Below are positions 34,801 through 49,174 of a stretch of 64,000 nucleotides of DNA, piece after piece (the stretch's first letter is position 1; every line of letters starts with the position of its first letter). The DNA lies in contig OZ257156.1 in the NCBI GenBank assembly GCA_965279375.1, positions 4,832,001-4,896,000 of the forward strand. The letters are read 5' to 3'. Below the pieces are notes generated by a model that worked only from the letters and a program-made list of their open reading frames with translations, searched no databases and had not been told where the DNA came from. Origin of the DNA: Gemmatimonas sp. GTDB taxonomy: Bacteria; Gemmatimonadota; Gemmatimonadetes; Gemmatimonadales; Gemmatimonadaceae. The translations under genes and the position numbers were made by a program.

Positions 34801-34997
34801 GGGACCAAGTTGGGCGAGGCCTCTGGCGTTGTGTACCCCCCTGCCTGGCGCGGAACGAACCGGGACGGAATTCACACAATTCCACCAGTGATACCGACGC
34901 GATTCGCGGTTGCGCTCGTTAGGTTACGTGAGCTTACGAGCGCGTGGCGTGTCGTCGCAGATGCGGCGTCGCGCCCAGTCCGTCCCCTGCTCTTCAG

Positions 34998-35735
34998 ATG
35001 CTCCCTGCCGCGGTCGATCGCCCCGCGATCATTCTGGACAACATCGCGCACCGATTTGGACGTCGGTGGGCCGTTCGCGGCGTGTCGGTGTCCGTGGCGC
35101 GCGGTGAGGTGCTGGCCATCATGGGGCACAACGGCAGCGGCAAGAGCACACTGCTGCGCGTGGCAGCGACCGCGATCCGCCCGACGCGCGGCGTCGGCTC
35201 GGTCAACGGCGTCGACCTCGTGAAGGATCCGCAGCGCGTGCGCGCGATGCTGGCGCTGCTCTCCACTGAGCCGGGCGTCTACGGCGACCTGACGGCGCTC
35301 GAGAATTTGCGATTCGCCGCCAAAATGCTCGGCGTGTCGGCCGACGGGCTGGCGCTGCAGCGTGCCCTCGATCGGGTGGGGCTTGGGCGCGAGGGGGACG
35401 AACGCGCCCGCAACATGTCGTCCGGCATGCAGCGCCGCCTGTCCATCGCACGGCTGCTGCTGCGTGAACCACAGGTCCTGCTGCTGGATGAGCCGTACAA
35501 CTCGCTCGATCCGGCCGGCGCCCATCTGGTCAACGAACTCATTCGCGAGACGCGCGACCGCGGCGGCAGCGTGCTGCTGGTCGCGCACGATCTGGGGCGG
35601 AGCGAGGGTTTGGCGCACCGCACCGTCGAGATGCGAGACGGGTTGCTGGAAGAGGAGCCGGATACTTCGGACGTCGTTCCGCTGGATACCAAGTCGGCGC
35701 GCGTCATGCGCGTGGAACGCGGAGGCAGCCGGTGA
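34998..35735 (+). CDS. ccmA: Heme exporter ATP-binding protein CcmA
   Basis: GHNGSGKST, MSSGMQRR, LLDEP. First gene of the ccm operon. Confidence 0.9.
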   Translation: MLPAAVDRPAIILDNIAHRFGRRWAVRGVSVSVARGEVLAIMGHNGSGKSTLLRVAATAIRPTRGVGSVNGVDLVKDPQRVRAMLALLSTEPGVYGDLTALENLRFAAKMLGVSADGLALQRALDRVGLGREGDERARNMSSGMQRRLSIARLLLREPQVLLLDEPYNSLDPAGAHLVNELIRETRDRGGSVLLVAHDLGRSEGLAHRTVEMRDGLLEEEPDTSDVVPLDTKSARVMRVERGGSR

Positions 35736-36442
35736 GTACCGACAGCGCAGCGCTGACGTCGCTGCAGGCCGATTGGGGTCGGGTCAAGGCGGTGGCGTGG
35801 AAGGACCTCACAGCAGAGCGGCGAACCAAGTCCAACTTCAACGCCGTCGTCGCGATGGCGGGGCTGATTCTCCTGTTCTTCGGCTTTGCCCTCGGTCCGG
35901 ACGCCGAAGGGCTCCGCAACGCAGCGGCCGGGGTGCTCTGGCTGACCATCCTCTTCAGCGGCGTGCTGGCGTTCAACCGTTCGTACCAGCTGGAGCTCGA
36001 GGCGGGCGCGCTGGAACAGCTGCTGATGTATCCCGGCGAGCGCTGGGCGATTTATCTGGGCAAGTTTCTGGCGAATCTCGCGTTCGTTTTTTTGGTCGAG
36101 GCGGTCACACTGCCGCTGACCGGGGTGCTGTATCATGTCGCCTTCCCGGAGCGATGGGCGACGGTGCTGCTGGTACTGTTCCTCGGCACCACGGGCTTCG
36201 TGTCGCTGGGAACGCTCTACGCGGCGATGGCCAGCCGCAGTCGGTCCCGAGAGGTATTGCTGCCGCTGCTGCTCTTTCCGATGCTCGTGCCGGTGCTGAT
36301 TGCAGCGAGCGGGGCGACGGCGTCGTTGTTGGTAGGCGATGTGATGGGTGACAGCCGGGCGTGGATCCGCCTGCTGGGCTCCTTCGATGTCATTTTTGTC
36401 GTAGCGTCCACCTGGGCGTTTCAATTCGTGATCGAGGGGTGA
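35732..36442 (+). CDS. ccmB: Heme exporter protein CcmB
   Basis: WKDLTAERR, FGFALGP, GVLW, LLPLLLFPMLVPVLI. Confidence 0.92.
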   Translation: MSTDSAALTSLQADWGRVKAVAWKDLTAERRTKSNFNAVVAMAGLILLFFGFALGPDAEGLRNAAAGVLWLTILFSGVLAFNRSYQLELEAGALEQLLMYPGERWAIYLGKFLANLAFVFLVEAVTLPLTGVLYHVAFPERWATVLLVLFLGTTGFVSLGTLYAAMASRSRSREVLLPLLLFPMLVPVLIAASGATASLLVGDVMGDSRAWIRLLGSFDVIFVVASTWAFQFVIEG

Positions 36443-36453
36443 GGAGATAATCC

Positions 36454-37209
36454 GTGGCTGAAAGCACGCTGAGAACCGCCGCGCCCAAAGCGCCGCCCAC
36501 CGCGCTGCCGATCGAGCTCGAGGCCATGCCGGGCTGGCTCACCGCGTTGACGTGGCTGACCCCTGTCGCCGTCGTCGCGGCCGAGGCTTGGTTCGTCTAC
36601 GCCTCCGCGCCGGATCGCGACATGGGGCATTTGCAGAAGATCATGTACGTGCACGTGCCGGCCGCGTGGAACGCCTTTCTGGCTTTCCTGCTCGTTTTCG
36701 TGCAGAGCGTGCGGTACTTGTGGACGCGCAACGAGCGCGCCGACCTGCTGGCTGCCGCGGGCGCCGAAGTCGGCGCGGTCCTGACCGGACTGACGCTGGC
36801 GCTCGGGTCGATCTGGGGGCGTCCTACCTGGGGCGTCTGGTGGACGTGGGATGCGCGCCTGACCTCCACGGCCGTGCTCTTTCTCGTCTACGTGGGCTAC
36901 CTGGCGCTGCGCGGCCTGACGGACGACCCGGAGCGTCGGGCGCGGTGGAGTGCCGCGGTTGGCATTCTGGGCGCGCTCAACGTGCCGATCGTGTACATGT
37001 CGGTGAAGTGGTGGCGCACACTGCACCAGATGCAGTCGGCTCCCAGCACCGTCGATCCCACGTACGCGTGGGGACTTCGTGCGAACTCAATTGCCTTCCT
37101 GCTCGTTTTGATTGTGTTCATCTCACATCGCTATCGTGGATTGGTGGCGGAGTACGTATTGGAACGTCGCGCCGATGAAGCGGCGCTGACACGGAGGGCT
37201 GGCGCATGA
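36454..37209 (+). CDS. ccmC: Heme exporter protein CcmC
   Basis: YVHVPAAW, WWD motif GSIWGRPTWGVWWTWDARLTS, SVKWWRTLHQ. Confidence 0.95.
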   Translation: MAESTLRTAAPKAPPTALPIELEAMPGWLTALTWLTPVAVVAAEAWFVYASAPDRDMGHLQKIMYVHVPAAWNAFLAFLLVFVQSVRYLWTRNERADLLAAAGAEVGAVLTGLTLALGSIWGRPTWGVWWTWDARLTSTAVLFLVYVGYLALRGLTDDPERRARWSAAVGILGALNVPIVYMSVKWWRTLHQMQSAPSTVDPTYAWGLRANSIAFLLVLIVFISHRYRGLVAEYVLERRADEAALTRRAGA

Positions 37210-37358
37210 ACGGCATGGTCATCGATTCCTGGCCGTACGTGATCGCGTCGTTCGTCCTCACGTGGGTAGTACTAGTGGGCTACAGCGTTCGTCTTTTTCG
37301 CATGATGCGCCGCAATGGCGCAGCGGCGACTTCCCCTGCTTCGGCAACACGCTCATGA
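37206..37358 (+). CDS. ccmD: Heme exporter protein CcmD (50 aa)
   Basis: Below the ORF-track cutoff. MNGMVIDSWPYVIASFVLTWVVLVGYSVRLFRMMRR..., single TM with YV..F then basic residues. ATGA overlaps with both ccmC and ccmE. Confidence 0.85.
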   Translation: MNGMVIDSWPYVIASFVLTWVVLVGYSVRLFRMMRRNGAAATSPASATRS

Positions 37359-37852
37359 CCAGCTCTCCCGCTCCCGATTCGGCGTCGCCCGTTTCCGCCG
37401 GCCCGCGCAACCCGTCGCGCAAGCCGATGGCCATCACGGCGCTCGTCCTCCTCGTCGGCGCTTTCGGCTACCTGATGTACGGCGGTGTCGAAGAGAATCT
37501 CGTGTACTTCCTGACCCCCAACGAACTGGTGGCCAAGGGCGAGAAGGCAGTGGATCGCCCGGTGCGACTCGGCGGACAGGTGGTGCCCGGCTCCGTGGTC
37601 TGGAACGCCGAAGCGCTCGACCTGCGCTTCCGCGTGACGGATGGCTCCAAGGAGGTGCTCGTGCACTCCTCCGGTGCGCCGCCACAGATGTTCCGCGCCG
37701 GCATCGGCGTCGTGGTGGAAGGCAAGTACGGCCGCAGCGGCGTCTTCGAGTCGCACAGCCTGATGGTCAAGCACTCGAACGAGTACCGCGCACCCAAGGC
37801 GGGTGAAGAAGGTCATCCGGCGCGCCTCGACAAGACGCTGATCCGGAGCTGA
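37355..37852 (+). CDS. ccmE: Heme chaperone CcmE
   Basis: N-terminal TM, YFLTP, RLGGQV, PQMFR.G.GVVVEG, HxxxY motif KHSNEY. Confidence 0.93.
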   Translation: MTSSPAPDSASPVSAGPRNPSRKPMAITALVLLVGAFGYLMYGGVEENLVYFLTPNELVAKGEKAVDRPVRLGGQVVPGSVVWNAEALDLRFRVTDGSKEVLVHSSGAPPQMFRAGIGVVVEGKYGRSGVFESHSLMVKHSNEYRAPKAGEEGHPARLDKTLIRS

Positions 37853-37856
37853 TCAA

Positions 37857-39890
37857 GTGACACGCATTCTTGGCCTGGCGAGTGTCTGGATCGCGCTGGT
37901 AATGGCGGTTTACGGCATCGTCGCCGCGGTCATCGGACTCACCAAGCAGCGGCAGGCCTACGTCGCCAGCGCGATGCAGGCGGTGTACGTCAACTTCGCG
38001 CTGCTGACGCTGGCGACCGGCGCGATGATCTACGGCTTGGTCACGCACGACTTCAGCATCGGCTACGTCGCGCAGGTGGGCAGCCGTACCACGCCGCTCT
38101 TCTACACGATCATCTCGCTCTGGGGCGCACTCGAAGGCTCCATCCTCTTCTGGGGATGGGTGCTGACGATGTACAGCGCTGTCGTGGTGTACAGCAATCG
38201 CAAGCGCGAAGGCAATCTCGTGCCCTGGTCCGCGGTCGCGCTGATGACGATCTGCCTCTTCTTCTTCATCCTGCTCGTCGGTCCGGCCGACCCGTGGGGG
38301 CTCGTTTCGCCCACGCCGGCGGATGGCCCGGGTCCTAACCCGCTGCTGCAGAACCACATCCTGATGGCGGTGCATCCGCCGCTGCTGTATCTGGGCTACG
38401 TCGGGATGTCGGTGCCGTTTGCATTCGCCGTGGGCGCGCTGATGGCCGGCGAGATCCACTCCGCCGACTGGATCAAGCTGACGCGCCGCTGGACGTTGAG
38501 CGCATGGTCGCTCCTCTCGCTAGCGATCATCGCTGGCATGTGGTGGAGCTACGAAGTGCTTGGCTGGGGCGGCTACTGGGCGTGGGATCCTGTCGAGAAC
38601 GCGTCGTTCATGCCGTGGCTCACCGCCACCGCCTTCCTGCACTCGGTCATGGTGCAGGAGCGTCGCGGGATGCTCAAGCTGTGGAACGTGAACCTGATTG
38701 TCTCCACGTTCCTGCTCACCATCCTCGGCACCTTCCTCACGCGCTCCGGCATCATTTCGTCGGTGCACGCGTTCACGACGGGCACGATCGGCTACTACTT
38801 CCTCGCCTTCATCGCGCTCTGTCTCGTTGTCTCGCTCGTGCTGATCGGCGGCAACAGCGACAAGCTGCGCAGCGACGGCTACCTCGACTCGGCGGCCTCG
38901 CGTGAAACGATCTTCCTCTTCAACAACCTGTTTCTGACTGGCTTCACCTTCGTGGTGGTGCTGGGGACGCTCTTCCCGCTGGTCGCGGAAGCATTCAAGG
39001 GTGTGAAGGTCACGGTCGGCGCGCCGTTCTTCAACAAGATGACCATCCCGATCTGCGTCGCCCTGCTGTTCCTCATGGGCGTCGGGCCGGCGTTGCCGTG
39101 GAAGGCGGCGTCGCGTGCACAGCTGCGCACGATGTTCATCCTGCCGTCGGTGGTGGCGATCGCGATCATCGGCATCGCGCTCGCGATGGGCATGCGCGAC
39201 GCGTATGGCATGGCGGCGTTTGCGTTCGCCGGCTTCGCCCTGGTGTGCAACCTGCGCGAGTACTGGATCGGAGCGGCGGCGCGCATGCGCGCCCATGGTG
39301 AAGCGTTTCCCGTGGCACTCGCGCGTCTCATCGGCGCCAACCGTCGTCGCTACGGCGGGTTCATCGCGCACATCGGCATCATCACCGTCGCGGCGGCAGT
39401 CACCGCGTCGTCCAGCTTCCGCTTTGAACGCGACGCCACGCTCAAGCCGGGCGCCGTCATGCCGGTCAAGGGCGATCTGTCCGTGCGCTTCAAGTCGCTC
39501 TGGGAAAAGGATGAGCCGCAGCGTCAGGTGATCGGCGCCGATGTCGAAGTGCTCGACAAGGGCGAGATCATCGGCACGCTTGATCCGCGGATGAACTTCT
39601 ATCGCTCGCAGCAGCAGCCGGTGCCAACGCCGGCCGTGCGCAGCCGTCTCGTCGGTGACGTGTACATCAACCTGATGGCGTTCACGCCGGATGGTCAGTC
39701 GGCGACGCTCAAGGTGATCGTCGAGCCGTTCGTGCCGTGGATCTGGTTTGGTGGACTCATCGTCGCGTTTGGCGCCGTCGTGTCCGCGTGGCCCGTCTCC
39801 CGTCGGTCAGCGCGTGCGGTCGCCGCCGTAGTGCCGCCGATGTCGCGTCCGCAGGGGACGCCCGTCACCGCATCGAGCGTGGCGCAATGA
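37857..39890 (+). CDS. ccmF: Cytochrome c heme lyase CcmF
   Basis: WGALEGS, NPLLQN, HPPLLYLGY, WGGYWAWDPVENASFMPW, RSGIISSVHAF. Confidence 0.96.
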   Translation: MTRILGLASVWIALVMAVYGIVAAVIGLTKQRQAYVASAMQAVYVNFALLTLATGAMIYGLVTHDFSIGYVAQVGSRTTPLFYTIISLWGALEGSILFWGWVLTMYSAVVVYSNRKREGNLVPWSAVALMTICLFFFILLVGPADPWGLVSPTPADGPGPNPLLQNHILMAVHPPLLYLGYVGMSVPFAFAVGALMAGEIHSADWIKLTRRWTLSAWSLLSLAIIAGMWWSYEVLGWGGYWAWDPVENASFMPWLTATAFLHSVMVQERRGMLKLWNVNLIVSTFLLTILGTFLTRSGIISSVHAFTTGTIGYYFLAFIALCLVVSLVLIGGNSDKLRSDGYLDSAASRETIFLFNNLFLTGFTFVVVLGTLFPLVAEAFKGVKVTVGAPFFNKMTIPICVALLFLMGVGPALPWKAASRAQLRTMFILPSVVAIAIIGIALAMGMRDAYGMAAFAFAGFALVCNLREYWIGAAARMRAHGEAFPVALARLIGANRRRYGGFIAHIGIITVAAAVTASSSFRFERDATLKPGAVMPVKGDLSVRFKSLWEKDEPQRQVIGADVEVLDKGEIIGTLDPRMNFYRSQQQPVPTPAVRSRLVGDVYINLMAFTPDGQSATLKVIVEPFVPWIWFGGLIVAFGAVVSAWPVSRRSARAVAAVVPPMSRPQGTPVTASSVAQ

Positions 39891-40507
39891 ACTGGAAGCG
39901 TGCGGCGCTGCTCACGGCGTTCGTTGGTGGTCCGATGATCGCGCTGCTGTCGTACGGCATGACGCGCGATCCGCGCAGCATTCCGTCGCCGTTGCCAGGG
40001 CGTCCGGCACCGGTATTCACACGCAGCGTCTTTGCACCGGGCAACGATCCGGTGCTGCGCCTCCCCGTTGGTGACTCGGTGCGGCTCGCCGACCACAAGG
40101 GGCAAGTCGTCGTCGTGAACTTCTGGGCCTCGTGGTGTCTGGCCTGTCGCGATGAACATGAGGCGCTGTCCAACGTCGCGCGGCGGTACGCTGGGCAGAA
40201 CGTGCGCTTCTACGGCCTGCTCTACAACGATCAGCCCAAGAACGGCATCGACTGGATCGAGATGATGGGTGGTCAGGCGTACCCGGCGCTCGAAGATCCG
40301 GGCGCTCGCGCGGCGATCGACTACGGCTTGTACGGCGTGCCGGAAACGTTCGTCGTCGACCAGCACGGCAGCGTGGCGCACAAGTATCTCGGACCGGTCA
40401 ATCCGGGTGAGTTAAGTGCGCTGATCGACTCCCTGCTGACCACCAACAAGACCTCCACCGACGCACCAGTGGTTCGTACGCTGCCATCGGCCGAGCCGAA
40501 GCAGTGA
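39887..40507 (+). CDS. ccmG: Thiol:disulfide oxidoreductase CcmG/DsbE
   Basis: VVVNFWASWCLAC, YGLYGVPETF, N-terminal anchor. Confidence 0.9.
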   Translation: MNWKRAALLTAFVGGPMIALLSYGMTRDPRSIPSPLPGRPAPVFTRSVFAPGNDPVLRLPVGDSVRLADHKGQVVVVNFWASWCLACRDEHEALSNVARRYAGQNVRFYGLLYNDQPKNGIDWIEMMGGQAYPALEDPGARAAIDYGLYGVPETFVVDQHGSVAHKYLGPVNPGELSALIDSLLTTNKTSTDAPVVRTLPSAEPKQ

Positions 40508-40980
40508 CGCGGGGAATCGTCGGCACGCTGCGTGCCATCGTCGGGGCGTGCGCACTGAGCGCGATGATGGCGGTGCCACTGCACGCGCAGGGGCAGATGC
40601 AGCCTGCGGCGCCCAAGGCGGGCGTTCCGCTCGCGGGCGCCGACACCCTGCTCGATGCGCGCACCAAGAGCGTCGCCTCGCGCCTGCGTTGCCCGGTGTG
40701 CCAAGGAGAATCGATTCAGGACTCGCCGGCCGAACTCGCTGGCCAGATGAAAGACCTGGTGCGCGAGCAGCTCGCCAGTGGTCGCAGCGAGGCGCAGGTC
40801 TACGAGTACTTCACCGCGAAGTACGGCCAGTGGATTCTGCTCGAGCCCAAGGCGGAAGGCATCAACCTGCTCGTCTACGGACTCCCCATCGCGTTTCTCG
40901 TGCTCGGTGGCGCGGGACTGATGATGGCGGTCAAGAAGTGGACGCGACCGCCCGCAGATCCCATCACCACGTCGGAGTAG
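40504..40980 (+). CDS. ccmH: Cytochrome c biogenesis protein CcmH
   Basis: LRCPVCQGESIQDS, KYGQWILLEP, C-terminal TM. Confidence 0.93.
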   Translation: MTRGIVGTLRAIVGACALSAMMAVPLHAQGQMQPAAPKAGVPLAGADTLLDARTKSVASRLRCPVCQGESIQDSPAELAGQMKDLVREQLASGRSEAQVYEYFTAKYGQWILLEPKAEGINLLVYGLPIAFLVLGGAGLMMAVKKWTRPPADPITTSE

Positions 40981-40984
40981 CGGC

Positions 40985-41458
40985 ATGTTTCGGATCGTCT
41001 CACCTGCCGCGAGACGCACGGCAGTTTGCTCACTCGGCGTTGCGACCACGATGCTGCTCGTAGCCTGTGGAGCGGAGGACACAGCTGGTCGTCAGCCACT
41101 CGGCGCAGGTGCTGCCGCCGCTGGTGCGGTACCAGCTCCGGCGGCCGACGCGCCATCGGCATTGAATGCCACGATTCCGGAGGGTCCCGTTCTCTCGGGT
41201 GAAGCCAAGCTCGCGCTGGATGCGGGGAACACCGCGTATCGCGCCAAGAAGTACGCCGAGGCGATCGGGTACTATCGGGCCGCTGCGGCGGCGGCGCCCA
41301 CGCAAGCCGCCCCGTGGTTTGGCGTCTTCATGGCGGCCAACGAGCTCAAGGATCAGGCGCTCGCCGACAGCGCGATGGCCAGGGTGGATGCGCTGTCGGC
41401 CGATGCCAAGGCACTGCAGGATCACGGGACCAGCAAGCCGGCCGTTCCAAACCCGTAG
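40985..41458 (+). CDS. TPR-like lipoprotein
   Basis: Lipobox LVAC, TPR-like AGNTAYRAKKYAEAIGYYRAA..P..AAPWFG. Starts 4 bp after ccmH. Confidence 0.75.
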   Translation: MFRIVSPAARRTAVCSLGVATTMLLVACGAEDTAGRQPLGAGAAAAGAVPAPAADAPSALNATIPEGPVLSGEAKLALDAGNTAYRAKKYAEAIGYYRAAAAAAPTQAAPWFGVFMAANELKDQALADSAMARVDALSADAKALQDHGTSKPAVPNP

Positions 41459-41556
41459 GAGCGGCTTCGGCACGGATTGAAACCATCCGAGCCACAGCAC
41501 CCGTCAAAGGAAGTGTAGCCCGCCGAACATCGCGCTCTCTCTCCCCACGGTGCTCC

Positions 41557-42690
41557 ATGCGAAATCCCGCCCATCGCTCCGCATCACTCGCCGTAGCCAC
41601 GCACAACGGCGACGGCAGCTTCGTCACCGCGTCCGCCCGCACGGCGGGACTACTCGGCGCGCTTGCGCTCATGAGCAGCGCACTCGCGCCCGAGGCTCAG
41701 GCACAGTCGGAGCGGAGAACGCTCAGCGGCTCGTCCGTGGCGATCTACAATCTCGTCGGCAATGTGTCCGTCGAGTCCGGGCGCGGATCGGACGTGGTGG
41801 TGGAGGTTACGCGCCGCGGCGGCGATGCGCGGGAGCTGCGCATCGAGACCGGAGAGATTGGCGGCCGACAGACGCTCCGGGTGGTCTACCCCGACGACGA
41901 CATCATCTATCCAGGCCGTCGCGATTCCTGGGGAAGCACCGAGGTCCAAGTGAATGACGACGGCACGTGGGGCGGCAAGCGTTGGCGCGGCGGCCGTCGC
42001 GTCCGCATTCGCTCGCGAGGCCGCGGCACGGAAGCGTGGGCCGATGTACGTATTCTCGTGCCCACGGGCAAGAGCGTGGCTGCGCACGTCGCCGTGGGCG
42101 AGCTCAATGCGGACGGAGTGGATGGCAACATCGCGCTCGAGAGTGGATCAGGACGTACCACGGCATCGAATGTTCGCGGATCGCTGTCCGTGGATGTTGG
42201 CTCTGGCGGCGTGACGGTGCGCGATTCGGATCTGAGTGATCTCTCGATCGACACCGGTTCTGGTGGCGTATCGCTCTCCGGCGTGGTCGCGAATCACTGC
42301 GTCATCGACACCGGCTCCGGCGGAGTGCAGGGTGACAACGCCGCGTGCGATGCGCTGGATATCGACGTGGGCTCGGGCGGCGTGCGCTTTCTCGACTCGC
42401 GCTCCTCAGCGGTGCGCATCGATGCCGGCAGCGGGACCGTGTCGATGACGCTGCGCAACTCGCCGCGTTCGGTGAACATCGAGTCGGGCTCGGGCGGTGT
42501 CCTGCTTGGCGTGCCCGGTTCGTTGAGCGCGGATATCGATATCGAAACCGGCAGCGGCGGCATCGAGACCGACTTCATGCTCCGCACGAATCGCGTTGAA
42601 CGCAATCACGTGCGCGGCGTAATCGGCGACGGAGCGGGCCGCATTCGCATCGAGACCGGCTCCGGTTCGGTGAAGCTGCGTCGCAACTAA
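41557..42690 (+). CDS. DUF4097 beta-strand repeat (adhesin-like) protein
   Basis: Signal-like segment followed by many (D/E)xGSG repeats, ending IETGSGSVKLR. Confidence 0.85.
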   Translation: MRNPAHRSASLAVATHNGDGSFVTASARTAGLLGALALMSSALAPEAQAQSERRTLSGSSVAIYNLVGNVSVESGRGSDVVVEVTRRGGDARELRIETGEIGGRQTLRVVYPDDDIIYPGRRDSWGSTEVQVNDDGTWGGKRWRGGRRVRIRSRGRGTEAWADVRILVPTGKSVAAHVAVGELNADGVDGNIALESGSGRTTASNVRGSLSVDVGSGGVTVRDSDLSDLSIDTGSGGVSLSGVVANHCVIDTGSGGVQGDNAACDALDIDVGSGGVRFLDSRSSAVRIDAGSGTVSMTLRNSPRSVNIESGSGGVLLGVPGSLSADIDIETGSGGIETDFMLRTNRVERNHVRGVIGDGAGRIRIETGSGSVKLRRN

Positions 42691-42701: not shown

Positions 42702-44036
42702 CTACTTCTTCTTCACTGTTGGCAGCACCGTGAGCGCGAACGGATCTGCGTTCGGATCCTCGTGCCACTCGTACTCGAGACTTTTCGCCAGCAACCGCGC
42801 GCGATCCTTGCCGTAGAGCTTGGCCACCATGCCGAGCGCCATGTCGGTACCAGCGGACACACCGGACGACGTCAGCAGCTTGCCGTCGTCCACCCAACGC
42901 GCCTTGGGCATCCACTGCACCGATGGGTCCTGCTCCATCGCCAGTGCAAAGTAGGCCTTGTTTGATGTCGCCTTGTGCCCAGCGAGAATTCCCGCCTTCG
43001 CCAGCAACGCTGAACCCGTGCACACCGACGTCGTCAGCTCGGTGCGCGCGTGCTGCGTGCGGAGATAATCGAGGAACGCCGCGTTCTTGAGCTCCGTGAA
43101 CGTACCCACACCGCCGGGCACCATCATCACATCGAGCGGCGGCGCATTCGCAAACGAGTACTCGGCAATGGTAGAGACTCCCTGTGCCGATTTGACCGGC
43201 CCCGCCTTCTCGGCCACGAGCACCACCTTGAACTCCGTCACGTACGACCACATCTCGATCGGCCCAAAGACATCGAGGACCTCGAACCCTGGGTAGAGCA
43301 CGATCCCCACGGTCTTCTTGGTGGAGGCACCTGGCGGCGACACAGCCGGCGTTGCGGCGCTCGCCGAGGTAGCCACCGTCTTGATGGCTGGATCGAGGGC
43401 TGCCTTGAGATACGCGGCGCGCCCGCCCGAAATGCTGGCGAGATACTCGTCTCGATTGGAGACGCCATCGCCATCAGCATCGCCATCGTATGCGAGATAC
43501 TTGCTGAGCGCGACAGCAAGCGTGTAGTCGCTCTTGAGTGGTGCACCGAACGTGCCCGACATCTCGTTGTACGCGGCGAACGATCCTTTGCCGAGCATGG
43601 CGTATCCGGCGCTCACGTCGGCGGCCGTCGGGTAGCGGCTGGCCAGCGACTGCATGTCGGTCGTAGCGGAAGCCCGCGCTTGCAGAAACGCCGCCCGCAC
43701 GAGTGCATGCGTGACGCCTCGCGATGCGCTCCGATCGAACGTCGGATTGGCGAGAATCGCTGAGACCAGCGCCAACTCATCGGCGTCGAGCATGCCGTTT
43801 GGCTTGCTGGTGACATCAAGGTTGGCGTCGGTGGTGTTGGGTGCAAAGCCCAGCCCTTTCATCGCGGCGTCGAAGTCCACGACGAGCGGAAGCGGCGGAT
43901 TGGCGCGTGGCTGCGACTGTGCCTGTACTGTGTCCGTCGCGCCGAGCATGATGGTCGCAGTAGCGGCGGTCAGTCTGGCAACCTTTGACAGTGACCGACG
44001 TGAAGTCCGACGTCGCGGCGCACGCGCCGCGATCAT
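42702..44036 (-). CDS. Secreted fusion: uncharacterised Asp-rich N-terminal domain plus DJ-1/PfpI (isonitrile hydratase-like) domain
   Basis: Basic/hydrophobic signal peptide, NGMLDADE and DGDADGDGVSNRDEY loops, C-terminal YPGFEVLDVFGP, MVPGG, SVCTGS, TSSGVSAGTDM. ATGA overlap with copC. Confidence 0.88.
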   Translation of the reverse strand: MIAARAPRRRTSRRSLSKVARLTAATATIMLGATDTVQAQSQPRANPPLPLVVDFDAAMKGLGFAPNTTDANLDVTSKPNGMLDADELALVSAILANPTFDRSASRGVTHALVRAAFLQARASATTDMQSLASRYPTAADVSAGYAMLGKGSFAAYNEMSGTFGAPLKSDYTLAVALSKYLAYDGDADGDGVSNRDEYLASISGGRAAYLKAALDPAIKTVATSASAATPAVSPPGASTKKTVGIVLYPGFEVLDVFGPIEMWSYVTEFKVVLVAEKAGPVKSAQGVSTIAEYSFANAPPLDVMMVPGGVGTFTELKNAAFLDYLRTQHARTELTTSVCTGSALLAKAGILAGHKATSNKAYFALAMEQDPSVQWMPKARWVDDGKLLTSSGVSAGTDMALGMVAKLYGKDRARLLAKSLEYEWHEDPNADPFALTVLPTVKKK

Positions 44037-44439
44037 TTGCCTGTCACCTTGAAGTCGATCGTGCCGTTGACGACATGGCCGTCCTTGGACATTGCCTTCC
44101 ACGTCACCTTGTAGGCGCCCGCCGCGAGCGGCTTGCTGATCGCGGCAGACAGTGGAGCGTCCTTGGCTTCAGCACGCGTCACCGGCGCCGTTGCAATGGC
44201 AACGCCTGCATCCGTCGCCAATGCGATCTTGGTTGCCGGTACTTCCGCGGCTCGGAGAGCCAGAGCTGAATCGCTTCGGGCGACTTGGCGAGCGTGGTGT
44301 CTGCCGACGGGAAGGATTTGAGCAGCCGCAGATGACGCATCGCGGCACTCGGTGCTGCAACGGCCGCGAGGGCAGCAGCAACGGAAACGACAGCGACAGT
44401 ACGACGAGCAGTGACGTTAGCGAGGGGGCGAGCGATCAT
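44033..44439 (-). pseudogene. copC: Copper-binding protein CopC, interrupted by a 1-bp frameshift (real lesion or sequencing error)
   Basis: Frame 1 gives signal peptide + HLRLLKSFPSADTTLAKSPEAIQLWLSEP. Frame 2 continues AEVPATKIAL...LAAGAYKVTWKAMSKDGHVVNGTIDF. Adding one base at about 44248 joins the two. Confidence 0.85.
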
Positions 44440-45593
44440 CGGGCACTCCAGGGGTTTGAATGTTGGGGATTCGTGAGAAACGAGCTGTCGGTGAGTGAGC
44501 GAAGAAACGCCAGCATGTCCTGCACTTCGCGCGGTGTGAGACCCATGCGCTTCATGAATTCGCTGCGGTACGGATTGGTCGCGCCAACGCCGGCGTGCGG
44601 CCCTGTCCGAATGGAGCGGCCACCCGCGTTGTAATGCGCGATCACCTGTTCGAGCGTCGCAATGCTGCCGTCGTGCATGTACGGCGCCGTCACGGCCACG
44701 TTGCGCAGCGACGGGGCCTTGAAGCGACCCATGTCCTCGTCGATGCCGGTGATCTCATGCACGCCGGTGTTGGGTGCCGGATACGCGCCGGTTCCACCGA
44801 TGTTGTAGAGTGCCGTATTGTGAAATTCGATTTCGGCGAAGCCTTTGCCTTCGTAGTCCGAGGTGCCAGTGAAGTTGAAGCCACCGTGACAGTGGAAGCA
44901 CTCGGTCTTCTCGGAGAAGAAGAGTTCCTCACCGCGTCGCGCCGACGCACTGATCGCGTGCAACTGGCCCGCCTTGTAGCGATCGTACGGCGAGTTCCCT
45001 GACAGCAGCGTGCGCTCGAATGACGCGATCGCCTTCACGATCTGGTCGAGCGTGACTCGCGCCGTATCGTCAGGAAAGGCCGCGGCGAACATCGCCTGAT
45101 ACTTGGGCACCGCCGCGAGGCGAGCGAGCAGCTGCTTCTCCTGTCCGCTCAGCCCCATCTCCACCGGCGATTCGCCGAACATCGGCACGATCGCCTGCTG
45201 CTCGAGCGAACGCATGCCGGGGTTGGCCCACGTGAGCGCCGGAGTGTACGCCACGTTCGCCAACGACATGCTGCTGCGCGGGTGCACCTGCCCCGTCGAG
45301 CCCAACGAACCCGCTCGACCATCCGTGAACGCGAGACGCTGGATGTGACAGCTGCCGCAGCTGAACGTGCCGTTCCCCGAGAGTCGCGTGTCGTAGAACA
45401 GATGTCGGCCAAGCGTGACCTTCTCCGTCGTCATCGGATTCGATGCGGGCACCTTGGGCACCGGGAAACCCTTCGGGAGATCCCACGACCATGCGCGGCG
45501 CGGCGTCCACGCCGTGAAGCCGGCCAGCGCGCACGCGGCAACGATCAGCGACGCAGCGCCAACGGTGCGCAACGAACTCTGACGAATAGTCAC
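44436..45593 (-). CDS. mbnH: MbnH-family di-heme cytochrome c peroxidase/MauG-like enzyme
   Basis: LGRHLFYDTRLS, two CxxCH motifs (CGSCH, CFHCH), LTWANP, FKAPSLRNVAVTAPYMHDGS. Adjacent to mbnP. Confidence 0.88.
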   Translation of the reverse strand: MTIRQSSLRTVGAASLIVAACALAGFTAWTPRRAWSWDLPKGFPVPKVPASNPMTTEKVTLGRHLFYDTRLSGNGTFSCGSCHIQRLAFTDGRAGSLGSTGQVHPRSSMSLANVAYTPALTWANPGMRSLEQQAIVPMFGESPVEMGLSGQEKQLLARLAAVPKYQAMFAAAFPDDTARVTLDQIVKAIASFERTLLSGNSPYDRYKAGQLHAISASARRGEELFFSEKTECFHCHGGFNFTGTSDYEGKGFAEIEFHNTALYNIGGTGAYPAPNTGVHEITGIDEDMGRFKAPSLRNVAVTAPYMHDGSIATLEQVIAHYNAGGRSIRTGPHAGVGATNPYRSEFMKRMGLTPREVQDMLAFLRSLTDSSFLTNPQHSNPWSAR

Positions 45594-45605
45594 GATCGAG
45601 TCTGG

Positions 45606-46565
45606 CTACTTGCCGGCAGTGCCAACGCGCATCGCATCGCCGCGCTGCGCGCGGAAGAAGCGCGGAGTGTCCGCGCCGGTCGATGACGGATGCGGCAGAC
45701 CGAGCGACGCAAAGAGTCCGCCGCAGTCGCTGTCCGACTCGGCCGACATGCACCCCGCCGCCGTCTTTGGCTGATTCTTGCGCACGTCGCTTCGAGCGAG
45801 CAGTGCGGCCAGATCGGCGACGACCACATCACGCTTCGGGTCGAAGCCCGGAAGCGCAATCGTCGCGCGGTTCGGATGACCGCAGCTCTTGGGAGTCTTT
45901 GCCGTGGAGTCGGCAGTGACGCATCCGGTGCTGCCCAGATGAATCACCCACGGCGTGGGCGCCGAGTCAGCGGCGGTCGCGCGCATGTCCACACGCAGGA
46001 ACTTGTGCCCCGACTGCCACGCCCAGAACAGCTGCGACAACGACAGTGGCGGCGGTGCCTTGGCGAGATCTTCGTGATTGCGGGAGAACGGAACGCCGAG
46101 CGCGAAGGAGACGCCGCGGTAGTCGCCAGCGGGTGCCATCACAACGACGTAGTCACGCGTTTCAGGCGTGCCGTTCGCGCACGATCCAGTCGCGTTCTCG
46201 AAGTCCACGAGTGCGACATCCGCGTCCTGCCACGGCGCTTCTGCGCGCAGCGCGGCGCGCACGGTGTCCCCGCGCGACGAGACGAGCTTGATGTCGCTCA
46301 CGTAGAAGCGGAAATCACTGGCGGTCACACTGGCGCGCGATGTACCGATGCCGTCGTATTTGGTGCCGCAACGAAAGGCCGCGGTGTCCACCACGCCGCG
46401 GAAGCGCACGGTCAGGGGAACGAGCGAGTCGCTCGCGGCCCGCGACGGCCGCGGGCGCTCGGCGGCGGCGGAGTCGGTAGCGACCGCGCCTAGCAGCGAG
46501 AGCGTGATCGCGCCGATGGCGCACAAACCGGCGGGAGCGATGAGGCGGGACAAGCGTTGGGACAT
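45606..46565 (-). CDS. mbnP: MbnP-family copper-binding protein (metallo-mystery pair Cys-motif protein)
   Basis: Signal peptide, FRCG, DFRFYVSD, WQ...VALVDFEN...C.NG, GVPF..NH, WxW motif FWAWQSGHKF, HLGSTGC, GCMS...DC. Confidence 0.88.
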   Translation of the reverse strand: MSQRLSRLIAPAGLCAIGAITLSLLGAVATDSAAAERPRPSRAASDSLVPLTVRFRGVVDTAAFRCGTKYDGIGTSRASVTASDFRFYVSDIKLVSSRGDTVRAALRAEAPWQDADVALVDFENATGSCANGTPETRDYVVVMAPAGDYRGVSFALGVPFSRNHEDLAKAPPPLSLSQLFWAWQSGHKFLRVDMRATAADSAPTPWVIHLGSTGCVTADSTAKTPKSCGHPNRATIALPGFDPKRDVVVADLAALLARSDVRKNQPKTAAGCMSAESDSDCGGLFASLGLPHPSSTGADTPRFFRAQRGDAMRVGTAGK

Positions 46566-46591
46566 GAGAGCTCCGGAGAGAATCGGAGGCC

Positions 46592-46623
46592 CCTCCACCG
46601 CGTCAGGCCCGACGCGATGGAGG
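46592..46623 (-). promoter_or_regulatory. 13-bp stem-loop in the mbnP 5' leader
   Basis: Minus strand CCTCCATCGCGTC-GGGCCT-GACGCGGTGGAGG (one G-U pair), about 26 nt upstream of the mbnP ATG, with no U-tract. Confidence 0.55.
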
Positions 46624-46837
46624 CACAACCGGCTGGAGGCCTGAAGGCACCGGTTGCGTGCTGCTCCGAGGACAAGAACTGGAGAAGTGGAGACCGCGCG
46701 CGACACGGAGCACGCACAACAGCGCGCAAACACGCGCGCCAACGCGTGCGTTCGTGAACGCAGATGCTCAGCGTCGGATAGACGCTGCGCTTACCGGTCT
46801 GTGATGTGAGGTGTGGCCGACCTTGCGGCCACCGACG

Positions 46838-47338
46838 TCAGGTGCGAACGCTGACGGGAGGCGCGATGGCGAACGGGAGGACGAAGTCCACCCAGCGCGT
46901 AACGAGTGCAGGATGCTCTTGCGGCAACGACACTTGGCCGACGCGTTCCACGACCCGCAACACCACCGCAGCAGGCTGCTGCGGCATGGCGACAATTGCG
47001 CAGCAGTGGCCGAGACAATCGCACGGATGTGGCGCCGGCGATCGCTCGCCTTGGCCATCACTCGTTGTGGCAGGCGCCGTGTGCGCCATGTGCGCGTGAG
47101 GCGCACTCTCCTCGTGCACGCTCGCAGCATGCGCAGCGGACGTAAGCGCGCTTCCGTTCACGTCGATCGGCGATTCGGCGGGAGCACTCATGCCCTGCAT
47201 CGCGCCGTGCGCCATGCCGTGTTCCGCACCGTGGCCGCCAGACGGGCACGACAAAACCGCCGGGCGGGCAGCGATGAAGCTGCACCACACCAACGCCATG
47301 ACGGCCTGCATCAGCCAGGATTTGCGCAACCGCGACAT
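46838..47338 (-). CDS. His/Met/Cys-rich exported protein, DUF2946/CruR-like leader candidate
   Basis: N-terminal hydrophobic segment, HGAEHGMAHGAMQGM and HAHMAH, CDCLGHCC, C-terminal LPFAIAPP. Lies upstream of mbnPH-copC. Confidence 0.7.
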   Translation of the reverse strand: MSRLRKSWLMQAVMALVWCSFIAARPAVLSCPSGGHGAEHGMAHGAMQGMSAPAESPIDVNGSALTSAAHAASVHEESAPHAHMAHTAPATTSDGQGERSPAPHPCDCLGHCCAIVAMPQQPAAVVLRVVERVGQVSLPQEHPALVTRWVDFVLPFAIAPPVSVRT

Positions 47339-47370: not shown

Positions 47371-49029
47371 TCAAGCCGAGCAGAATCCCCTCGCAACCAG
47401 CAGTGCGCGCACTGGCTCCGCCGCCATGCTCTCCGCTGACTCGTGCCACCGATTGAACGACTCGGCGCGCGTTGCGCCGGCGTCGAGCAGTGCGGCAGTG
47501 ATCGACACATAGTCGTCCACGCGCGGATTGTTCGCATTGGTGGAACCGTGGGCCGTCCACGCGATCGGTGAGCTGCCGTAGTTGCTGTCCCGCTGATTCA
47601 CTGGTGCGCCGGCGGCGATCAGCTGCGCCACCAGCGCTACGCGTCCGTGCCACGCGGCCCAATGCAGCGGCGTGCCGCCCCACTCGCCGTCCTGATCGAG
47701 CGGCCAACCCAGCGCGAGCATCAGGGCCACGCTCGCATCGCGTCGCTCGTCGATCGCTACGCCCAACGCCTGCCGATCTTCGGCAGTCAGTTCCGACAAG
47801 ACTCGCGGATGCGCCGTCAGCACGGCGCGCGCCGACGCTTCATCGGCCACGGCACAGGCACCGAGCAACAGATCGACGGGCGCGAGGTCATCGACAACCG
47901 CGCCGTGCTGCTGCAAGTACGCCGCAGCGGCCCTATTGCCCGCGCGTACCGCCAACGCGTACGGCGTTCGTCCATCGCGTCGGCGAACCGTGATGTTTGC
48001 ACCGTGTGCGACGAGCAACGCGACGACCGATGCGTCGTACCCGGACGCAACCACCCGATGCAGCGGCACCTCGCCGGCGTACGATTTACCTGCGTGCGAG
48101 TTACCCTCGTCGGTCGCACCGGCATTCTCTCCAGCAACGAAGCTCCGCACGTTCGGATCGGCACCATGCGCGAGCAGCCACTCCATGCCGCGGAGTACGG
48201 ACGCACTGATCGGATTGGACGCACGATGCGTGGCCAGAAAGTAGAGCGGCGTGTTGCCGGACGCGCCGTGCCGTCCGCTCAGCTCCGCACCGAACTCACG
48301 CAGCGCCTCCAGACATTCGCGGTGATCGTGCTGCGCGGCGTGATACACGCTTTCGCCGTCGGTCGGGTTGGCGCCACGCTCGAGTAGGAGCCGAGTGAGT
48401 GGCTCATCGTTGGCGACGCAGGCAAAGTAGAGAATGGGAATGCGTGCCGTAGCATCGCCCAGCGGCACGGAAGCGTTCGCGCTCGCCCCTGCGTCCAGCA
48501 GCAACCGTACGCTCTCCAACCGTGCGCGAGGCGACACGTCCAACTGCGCGTGCAGCGCACACTGCATCGCATACACGATCGGCTCGGTGCCATCGGGCTC
48601 GGTGGGTCGCATTGCCGAGGACGGATCCGACGCGATCCAGTCGGCGAGCGCGTCGACATTTGCCGTCGCGGCCGCCGTGTGCACGTTCACGCCAGAGATC
48701 GCGGGGTACGCGGTCAGCAGCTCATGCGCCCGCGCGAACTGCTCATCGCGCACGGCCTTGAGAAAGAGCGCGGCGTTCACCCGCAGCGGATCCGCCGCTT
48801 CGACCGTGCGCACCAGCTCCTCCCACGAGCGAAGCCCGGCCTGTGTGGCCAGCGCACGCTGCGCATCCGCGATGGTGAGCGCCTCGCGCATCACGTCGTC
48901 GCTGGCGGAGACAAACTCCGGAAGCAGCCCGCGCAGTCGCTTGAGCAACACGGCATCGCCCTGTTGCGCCGCGCGCAGCAACTGCATCGACTGCGTCTGC
49001 AGTGCGGCGATCGAGAATCCATCCGCCAT
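47371..49029 (-). CDS. Ankyrin-repeat protein
   Basis: Repeated LLxxGAxxN, GNTPLY, GRTPY and GGTPLHWAA motifs. GGAGG RBS before ATG 49029. Confidence 0.9.
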   Translation of the reverse strand: MADGFSIAALQTQSMQLLRAAQQGDAVLLKRLRGLLPEFVSASDDVMREALTIADAQRALATQAGLRSWEELVRTVEAADPLRVNAALFLKAVRDEQFARAHELLTAYPAISGVNVHTAAATANVDALADWIASDPSSAMRPTEPDGTEPIVYAMQCALHAQLDVSPRARLESVRLLLDAGASANASVPLGDATARIPILYFACVANDEPLTRLLLERGANPTDGESVYHAAQHDHRECLEALREFGAELSGRHGASGNTPLYFLATHRASNPISASVLRGMEWLLAHGADPNVRSFVAGENAGATDEGNSHAGKSYAGEVPLHRVVASGYDASVVALLVAHGANITVRRRDGRTPYALAVRAGNRAAAAYLQQHGAVVDDLAPVDLLLGACAVADEASARAVLTAHPRVLSELTAEDRQALGVAIDERRDASVALMLALGWPLDQDGEWGGTPLHWAAWHGRVALVAQLIAAGAPVNQRDSNYGSSPIAWTAHGSTNANNPRVDDYVSITAALLDAGATRAESFNRWHESAESMAAEPVRALLVARGFCSA

Positions 49030-49174
49030 ACCATCCTCCATGTGGCGACCCGCGCCGACTCGTCGAATCGGGCACGGCCGCATCCCGCGCAATCATGTAC
49101 ACGCTGTCGTCGAAGTGCCAATGTAACGATCGGGCAAAGAAGCCGGACTGTCACTGCTGCCGCTTTTTGTGGAC

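Follow-up and report, generated by a model that had tools for sequence, protein, structure and literature searches.

An apparently undescribed DJ-1/PfpI fusion protein as an accessory of MbnP/MbnH copper operons

We analysed a 64,000-nucleotide stretch of a Gemmatimonas sp. genome (assembly GCA_965279375.1, contig OZ257156.1, positions 4,832,001 to 4,896,000; hereafter the window), taken from a single 5.3-Mb contig that is 99.95% complete, and focused on a copper operon whose last gene encodes a 444-aa protein with a DJ-1/PfpI domain. Five co-oriented genes on the minus strand make up this operon, as had been described in a first-pass annotation made from the letters alone: a CruR/DUF2946-like leader open reading frame (ORF) of 166 aa (46838..47338), mbnP (319 aa, a WxW copper-binding protein; 45606..46565), mbnH (385 aa, a di-haem MauG-like enzyme; 44436..45593), copC (44033..44439) and the two-domain DJ-1 gene (42702..44036). 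MbnP matched PF20243 (E = 9e-42) and TIGR04052 (265 bits, cut-off 140), carries a WAW motif at 181 and is encoded next to mbnH; MbnH matched TIGR04039 (505 bits, cut-off 363) and has CxxCH motifs at 79 and 232. According to the family literature, MbnH turns a Trp of MbnP into kynurenine, building a copper site, and CopC is a periplasmic copper carrier. The leader is separated from mbnP by 272 bp and mbnP from mbnH by 12 bp. Both ATGA overlaps noted earlier, mbnH/copC and copC/DJ-1, are real, and the second is also found in loci L021, L022 and L100. Because such overlaps are common in operons generally, they are weak evidence of shared function. Scans for promoters and terminators did no better than chance (0 promoters; 4 terminators versus 3.3 expected).

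The copC gene is 407 bp long and split over two frames near 44247, with PF04234 matching both halves, a feature that the first-pass annotation had overlooked. We found that the contigs from four of four runs have an additional C behind 44247 and show no further difference; with this base the gene is 408 bp and encodes 135 aa, as in L021 and L022. The split is therefore most likely a one-base assembly error, and a genuine pseudogene is unlikely; the four runs come from one sample of one study, possibly the window's own source.

The leader, first in the operon, has the Cys cluster CxCxxxCC and, 44 residues further on, the sequence IAPP near its C terminus. These motifs are kept in L021, L022 and L100 and in the second leader of L104. 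CruR proteins (DUF2946) are defined by CxxC and RAPP about 45 residues apart and by an attenuation of the genes downstream that copper triggers (PMC9426467). Because the match to Pfam DUF2946 (PF11162) was weak (E = 0.70), we assigned the leader by position and motif spacing, and describe it as CruR-like on the basis of PMC9426467. A proteobacterial leader profile recovered NCBI-annotated DUF2946 genes at 59 bits and did not match the window's leader. Leaders of the CruR type are described as turning on such operons under copper scarcity. The second leader of L104 (7479-10618; G000, about 747,500) shares this Cys cluster and has GPP at its end; behind it follow genes for a TonB receptor, a thioredoxin-like protein and a BNR protein, together a candidate unlinked copper importer.

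The 444-aa protein consists of a putative signal peptide (residues ~1-39), an N-domain (~50-220; window 43377..43889, minus strand), a flexible linker (223-238) and a DJ-1 domain (240-440), in which PF01965 matched residues 242-404. An AlphaFold (AF2) model built with 120 homologues had a mean predicted local distance difference test (pLDDT) of 89 and a predicted template-modelling score (pTM) of 0.57, and it contained a disordered N terminus, a confident all-helical N-domain, a flexible linker and the DJ-1 domain. The signal peptide proposed earlier fits the family better than this member: 115 of the 117 homologues bearing an N-terminal extension exceeded a Kyte–Doolittle (KD) hydrophobicity of 1.8, whereas the window's own stretch is weak (KD 1.53), the call being a hydrophobicity heuristic. 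Judging from these sequences, the fusion protein is probably exported to the periplasm. The Asp of LDxxGP and the Cys of SVCTGS to which the first-pass annotation had pointed are D255 (in LDVFGP) and C339; both occur in 120/120 homologues, at the positions of the Cys nucleophile and Asp general acid of isocyanide hydratase (ICH). Y422 is likewise invariant, and T340 and D398 are at least 90% conserved. D255, C339, Y422, T340 and D398 align with ICH D17, C101, Y181, T102 and D157, the equivalence of the Asp–Tyr pair having been mapped by us from the Ralstonia numbering in PMC10792529. The homologues share one conserved Cys, and no His is conserved above 70%.

The N-domain, which falls in no Pfam family, contains two conserved Asp-rich loops and one invariant Met but no conserved Cys. 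It is a mobile module with 488 representatives at E <= 1e-3 and up to 11 copies in large proteins. Among the 58 representatives scanned in Pfam, drawn from the best 150 of the 488, four were N-domain–DJ-1–CopC fusions, an arrangement also present in L045 and L046, and one was an MbnH–N-domain fusion (P0142; TIGR04039 441 bits, above the cut-off of 363). Matches of the N-domain to EF-hand/parvalbumin profiles were weak (E at least 0.03), its single-sequence model reached a pLDDT of 41, and its Atlas matches, led by the TSP3 type, all stayed under 0.9; in structure searches with the full model, the matches were taken up by the DJ-1 domain. We infer that this domain probably serves for tethering or docking, stabilised by calcium, rather than as a copper site. 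In four large proteins (P0121, P0130, P0132 and P0137) it was matched 5-11 times, in some together with P-proprotein or CHRD domains, as an undescribed repeat module.

The first-pass annotation had proposed a survey of gene neighbourhoods, and this survey bore out conservation of the fusion. From a GTDB scan with 542 confirmed loci we examined the 80 best, together with two loci of the phylum, using neighbour profiles built from fusion loci and a reach of about 8 kb. Copper genes (MbnP, MbnH, CopC, CopD, PCuAC or SCO) were present in 18 of the 28 loci with an N-domain, which include a split form (L055) and a broken copy (L077): mbnP with mbnH in 10, CopC in 12 (two of them fused), PCuAC in 8, SCO in 5 and a leader in 10. 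Stand-alone relatives had copper genes in 4/11 close and 1/43 distant cases, and mbnP or mbnH lay near 0/54 of them, also at E <= 1e-3. Pfam confirmed the identities of 122 selected neighbours. Gene order varied among the loci of Gemmatimonadota, Acidobacteriota, Alphaproteobacteria and Gammaproteobacteria, and all three fusion-bearing genomes of the window's phylum have mbnP, or a remnant of it, adjoining the fusion. The copper link of the fusion is thus conserved, and is stronger than had been claimed; since the fusion is kept beside copper genes across phyla, the objection of non-conservation falls away. The fusion is an accessory of known copper-uptake operons. We left out a fourth N-domain match in the phylum (G135; E 2.7e-4), which contains two stops, and eight mostly short loci from a metagenome scan, two of them with the TonB receptor described below upstream of the fusion, were excluded from the counts. 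One fusion locus of the phylum (L100 9641-12323, genome G326) has a truncated mbnP and no mbnH, through deletion or mis-assembly, and retains the leader, copC, fusion, cytochrome c, PCuAC and SCO.

No TonB receptor lies in the window's cluster, as annotated earlier. A single family of siderophore-type TonB receptors (38-88% identical to the L026 copy) was present in 12 of the 28 N-domain loci, and in nine loci the receptor ended 7-134 bp upstream of the fusion. Six of these receptor-bearing loci have a second DJ-1 gene right after the fusion, with a twin-Arg-like start; its product is 3EWN-like, scoring 268 bits against 3EWN, 180 against ICH and 68 against 3MGK. In a Caulobacterales-centred sample (401 genomes of the order around G424), the N-domain was found in 5 genomes and the receptor in 23. 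The receptor was directly followed by a 3EWN-like DJ-1 gene in 17 of the 23 loci, by the fusion in 3 and by neither of them in the remaining 3; the 17 pairs had not been selected for this adjacency. Of 22 extended receptor loci, 20 have a DJ-1 gene, 6 have copper genes and 11 have a leader-like ORF (3 of them weak); L160, L161 and L166 run in the order receptor, 3EWN-like DJ-1, mbnP, mbnH, copC, copD/PCuAC. The 3EWN-like protein, a closer relative of ICH, fills the same slot behind the receptor and beside mbnPH, which lends the first-pass interpretation indirect support. On two of two sphingomonad plasmids the gene after DUF2946 and the receptor encodes an alpha/beta hydrolase; pairing of the receptor with a hydrolytic enzyme is thus seen repeatedly. 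Three Methylocystis/Methylosinus records of the plasmid survey have more distant receptors preceding a 3EWN-like gene without copper genes, and a fourth such DJ-1, from Nitratireductor, has no receptor. On these methanotroph plasmids (L154, L155 and L159) the receptor–DJ-1 pair stands opposite a two-component system, with pqqA/mxa next to it in Methylocystis. Stand-alone members of the fusion clade (L038, L040, L047, L050 and L051) have in their vicinity other TonB receptors that come with CruR-like leaders, and in three cases also PCuAC.

The DJ-1 domain had been called isonitrile-hydratase-like, an identity that proved too strong. Its sequence scored 155 bits to 3MGK versus 111 bits to ICH, for which orthologues score 290 and 267 bits, and its structural match to 3MGK (Z 31.9, rmsd 1.5, 196 aligned, 41% identity) was better than that to ICH 3NON (Z 29.3, rmsd 2.1, 191 aligned). 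In a tree of 40 rows chosen from 113 domains (LG+G4; 3MGK itself absent, and ICH represented by three plasmid stand-ins, two of them checked against ICH), the fusion clade had a support of 99/100. In the phylogeny against InhA/ICH suggested earlier, an approximately unbiased (AU) test rejected a clade uniting the fusions with the ICH-orthologue stand-ins (p = 0.0014) and did not reject one that joins them to the ICH/3EWN group in the broad sense (p = 0.097); FastTree and quick trees gave the same split from ICH as the careful tree. On sequence grounds, with structure match and shared motifs in agreement, the domain is a member of the 3MGK clade and not an orthologue of ICH. The Asp/Cys motif, which the first-pass annotation had read as a sign of ICH, is not diagnostic, because similar LD..GP and SVC[TS]G motifs occur in GlxA/AraC-type regulators and in the genome's own paralogue. 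T[ST]HW, Gly150 and the EYxPxPPF tail, which ICH and its orthologues have, are replaced by TSNK, Ser391 and EYEW..D...DPF. The domain may act like ICH, yet we do not class it as one.

The explanation that we favour for these arrangements, at about even chances, is that the operon serves copper-starvation uptake and that its accessory is a cysteine enzyme of the periplasm, which modifies a copper ligand after import and frees the metal. The CruR-type leader would switch the operon on when copper is scarce, and a TonB receptor, encoded next to the enzyme in proteobacterial relatives and presumably at another locus in the window's genome, would import the copper–ligand complex. In the periplasm Cys339, aided by Asp255, would attack the ligand and destroy its metal-binding group, and the freed copper would be taken up by MbnP, CopC or PCuAC. 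Import, ligand destruction and hand-over to chaperones would explain why receptor and enzyme genes adjoin, why export signals are present, why the active site is intact and why fusions to CopC and MbnH occur. We infer all of the chemistry, transport and regulation in this scheme. Isonitrile chalkophores are the leading candidate for the substrate and carry roughly half of the weight that we give to the scheme, the rest falling to another hydrolysable ligand; for diisonitriles, release of the metal through hydration to formamides has been postulated (PMC13674278, PMC8872721). A specific form of the scheme, which we hold only tentatively, is chalkophore piracy by Gram-negative bacteria: in copper-starved cells the receptor would import copper–isonitrile complexes of actinomycetes or fungi, exported DJ-1 enzymes of the ICH subfamily (3EWN-like, the 3MGK-clade fusion or both) would hydrate the isonitriles in the periplasm, and MbnP/MbnH, CopC/D and PCuAC/SCO would capture the copper.

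Several observations weigh against copper release from an imported ligand, and against an isonitrile ligand in particular. The fusion falls outside the ICH clade (AU p = 0.0014 with the stand-ins). H121-W122 of ICH is N-K in the fusion, G150 is an invariant Ser and the C-terminal motif differs. The G150T mutation cuts the kcat of ICH by about 80% (PMC10462001), and a reactive Cys by itself is insufficient for ICH activity (PMC12570138). The window's genome contains no receptor orthologue (the best match had 24-27% identity and 151 bits) and no gene of the ICH clade. Ten of the 28 N-domain loci are without any copper gene, and of the 22 extended receptor loci copper genes are present in only the 6 already mentioned, with neither a copper gene nor a leader in 9. 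Within the phylum the fusion is rare, with 3 of 401 genomes versus 26 with mbnP (23 over the cut-off); in 20 further mbnP regions, which take in 21 of the 25 remaining mbnP sites above the cut-off, the fusion occurred in 0, an ICH/3EWN-type DJ-1 in 3 and no DJ-1 in 17. The neighbourhood counts are also not independent, because the profiles come from fusion loci and several loci are near-duplicates.

Human DJ-1 binds copper, and the protein might instead be a carrier or repair helper in which the DJ-1 Cys binds or relays copper, or removes carbonyl or oxidative damage, through contact with CopC or MbnH. The fusions to both proteins fit such a role, as do the persistence of copC, the fusion, cytochrome c, PCuAC and SCO in G326 despite the truncated mbnP and the loss of mbnH from the locus, and the lack of a dedicated receptor at the Gemmatimonadota and Acidobacteriota loci. 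Against it, a single Cys is conserved and no His above 70%, glyoxalase-type scores were weak (TIGR01383 67.5 bits, cut-off 131), and the tight adjacency of receptor and DJ-1 genes suits a small-molecule substrate better; we regard the helper role as unlikely. Ligand destruction could also be an end in itself, the enzyme hydrating free copper-starving isonitrile antibiotics, with copper starvation as their signal and no copper harvested. ICHs have been described as defensive (PMC10462001, PMC10792529), SF2768 inhibits Gram-negative bacteria through copper sequestration (PMC13500777), and the window's genome has no copy of the receptor. Pure defence seems improbable to us, given that a detoxifier needs no dedicated importer, yet the enzyme gene comes next in 20 of 23 receptor loci, and given that the fusion stands outside the ICH clade.

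Finally, the enzyme could be a passenger, namely a general periplasmic amidase-like protein on a mobile cassette, or one that serves another imported metal or nutrient. Consistent with this, 42 of the 43 distant relatives have no copper neighbours, the fusion gene of L024, L027, L029 and L030 has a penicillin amidase gene on one side and a phosphotriesterase-family gene on the other, the closest structures to the receptor are iron-siderophore receptors (FoxA/CntO-labelled entries, ~160 bits), and the Methylocystis/Methylosinus receptor–DJ-1 pairs accompany a two-component system (and pqq/mxa in Methylocystis), not copper genes. The linkage to copper genes nevertheless persists through changes of gene order in three phyla, extends to gene fusions and is seen again with a second DJ-1 clade, and we give this reading little credence.

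Siderophore modules that pair a receptor with a hydrolase (mentioned in PMC8872721) follow the logic of the enterobactin esterase. Copper release by a periplasmic enzyme would resemble them in that the ligand is first imported and then broken down by an enzyme, which sets the metal free, but here the context is copper and the enzyme is of the DJ-1 cysteine type rather than an esterase. Compared with Pseudomonas ICH/InhA (3NON), which hydrates isonitriles to N-formamides, the fusion shares the DJ-1 fold and equivalents of Asp17, Cys101, Thr102, Asp157 and Tyr181, whereas it is about 35% identical, belongs to a separate clade, has N-K for H-W and another C-terminal segment, and adds a putative signal peptide and an N-domain. 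ICH, SfaF, Rv0052 and XanA are, in the accessible accounts, intracellular or from producers, whereas the fusion lies in an uptake operon in which no synthase was seen. The best match, 3MGK from Clostridium acetobutylicum (ThiJ family), shares the T.NK and EYxW..D...DPF motifs but is a stand-alone 211-residue chain titled 'probable protease/amidase', for which we found no function. The operon has the same core and layout as the described sets of MbnP/MbnH with CopC, PCuAC, SCO and TonB receptors behind CruR leaders (PMC3621798, PMC9426467, PMC11951088, PMC13729199); for the CruR operons of PMC9426467, DJ-1/PfpI goes unmentioned in the text and three text supplements, Fig. 7 aside. Bordetella CrtA (PMC12914433), likened here by operon and not by direct sequence comparison, belongs to a CruR-led operon that imports chelated copper, for which a xenometallophore has been suggested; its partner is PepSY_TM, and DJ-1, PfpI and MbnP go unmentioned in the accessible part of that paper. 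A difference from methanobactin operons is that no methanobactin synthase family (PF05114) was found here. Extending the earlier statement that the cluster has no methanobactin biosynthesis gene, we found no match to PF05114 (the MbnB family) anywhere in the 99.95% complete genome, in a search whose control was positive in 1/14 and which did not cover mbnA and mbnC. A search for the isonitrile synthase family PF05141 matched 0/5 genomes but its control was blank, which makes it uninformative, and ScoE-type genes were not searched.

The first-pass annotation had not known of this combination being described, and our search of the literature (titles and abstract starts, with most subscription journals outside its coverage) likewise found nothing tying DJ-1/PfpI to MbnP/H or to copper TonB receptors. 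The DJ-1 fusion is real and conserved, an accessory module of known copper-uptake operons that has apparently not been described before. At stake are how chalkophores give up their copper, which other organisms exploit them and what mbnPH does outside methanobactin producers. A 2026 paper describes the machinery that handles diisonitriles as largely unknown, with hydratase-driven release postulated (PMC13674278), and a review describes the use of SF2768 as apparently confined to Streptomyces (PMC13500777). The receptor–enzyme pair names specific Caulobacter and Phenylobacterium genes, which makes the chalkophore idea directly testable; if piracy is true, it would provide a function for two structural-genomics DJ-1 clades and a receptor for isonitrile chalkophores.

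Further loci bear on the surroundings of these genes. The window's genome has a separate cluster of copC-copD, cytochrome c, SCO and PCuAC (L102 8342-12080) and an orphan second mbnH without mbnP (L103 8101-9288; 469 bits). In two Gemmatimonadota genomes (L193 10872-14750 and L201 5190-8859), a DJ-1 gene of the ICH/3EWN type comes after a single ORF that scores as MbnP and as MbnH at once. The Hyphomonadaceae loci with the penicillin-amidase and phosphotriesterase-family flanks (L024, L027, L029 and L030) have TetR and MaoC genes beside them, and phosphotriesterase and TetR genes also flank the fusion in L101. Just upstream of the window's leader lies a gene for a 573-aa ankyrin-repeat protein (47371-49092, minus strand), which we did not see as a recurring neighbour. 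On the other side, a DUF4097 gene (41314-42690) ends 11 bp from the DJ-1 stop, and a ccm-type cytochrome c maturation cluster (34944-41458, plus strand) converges on the copper operon; MbnH requires c-type haem attachment.

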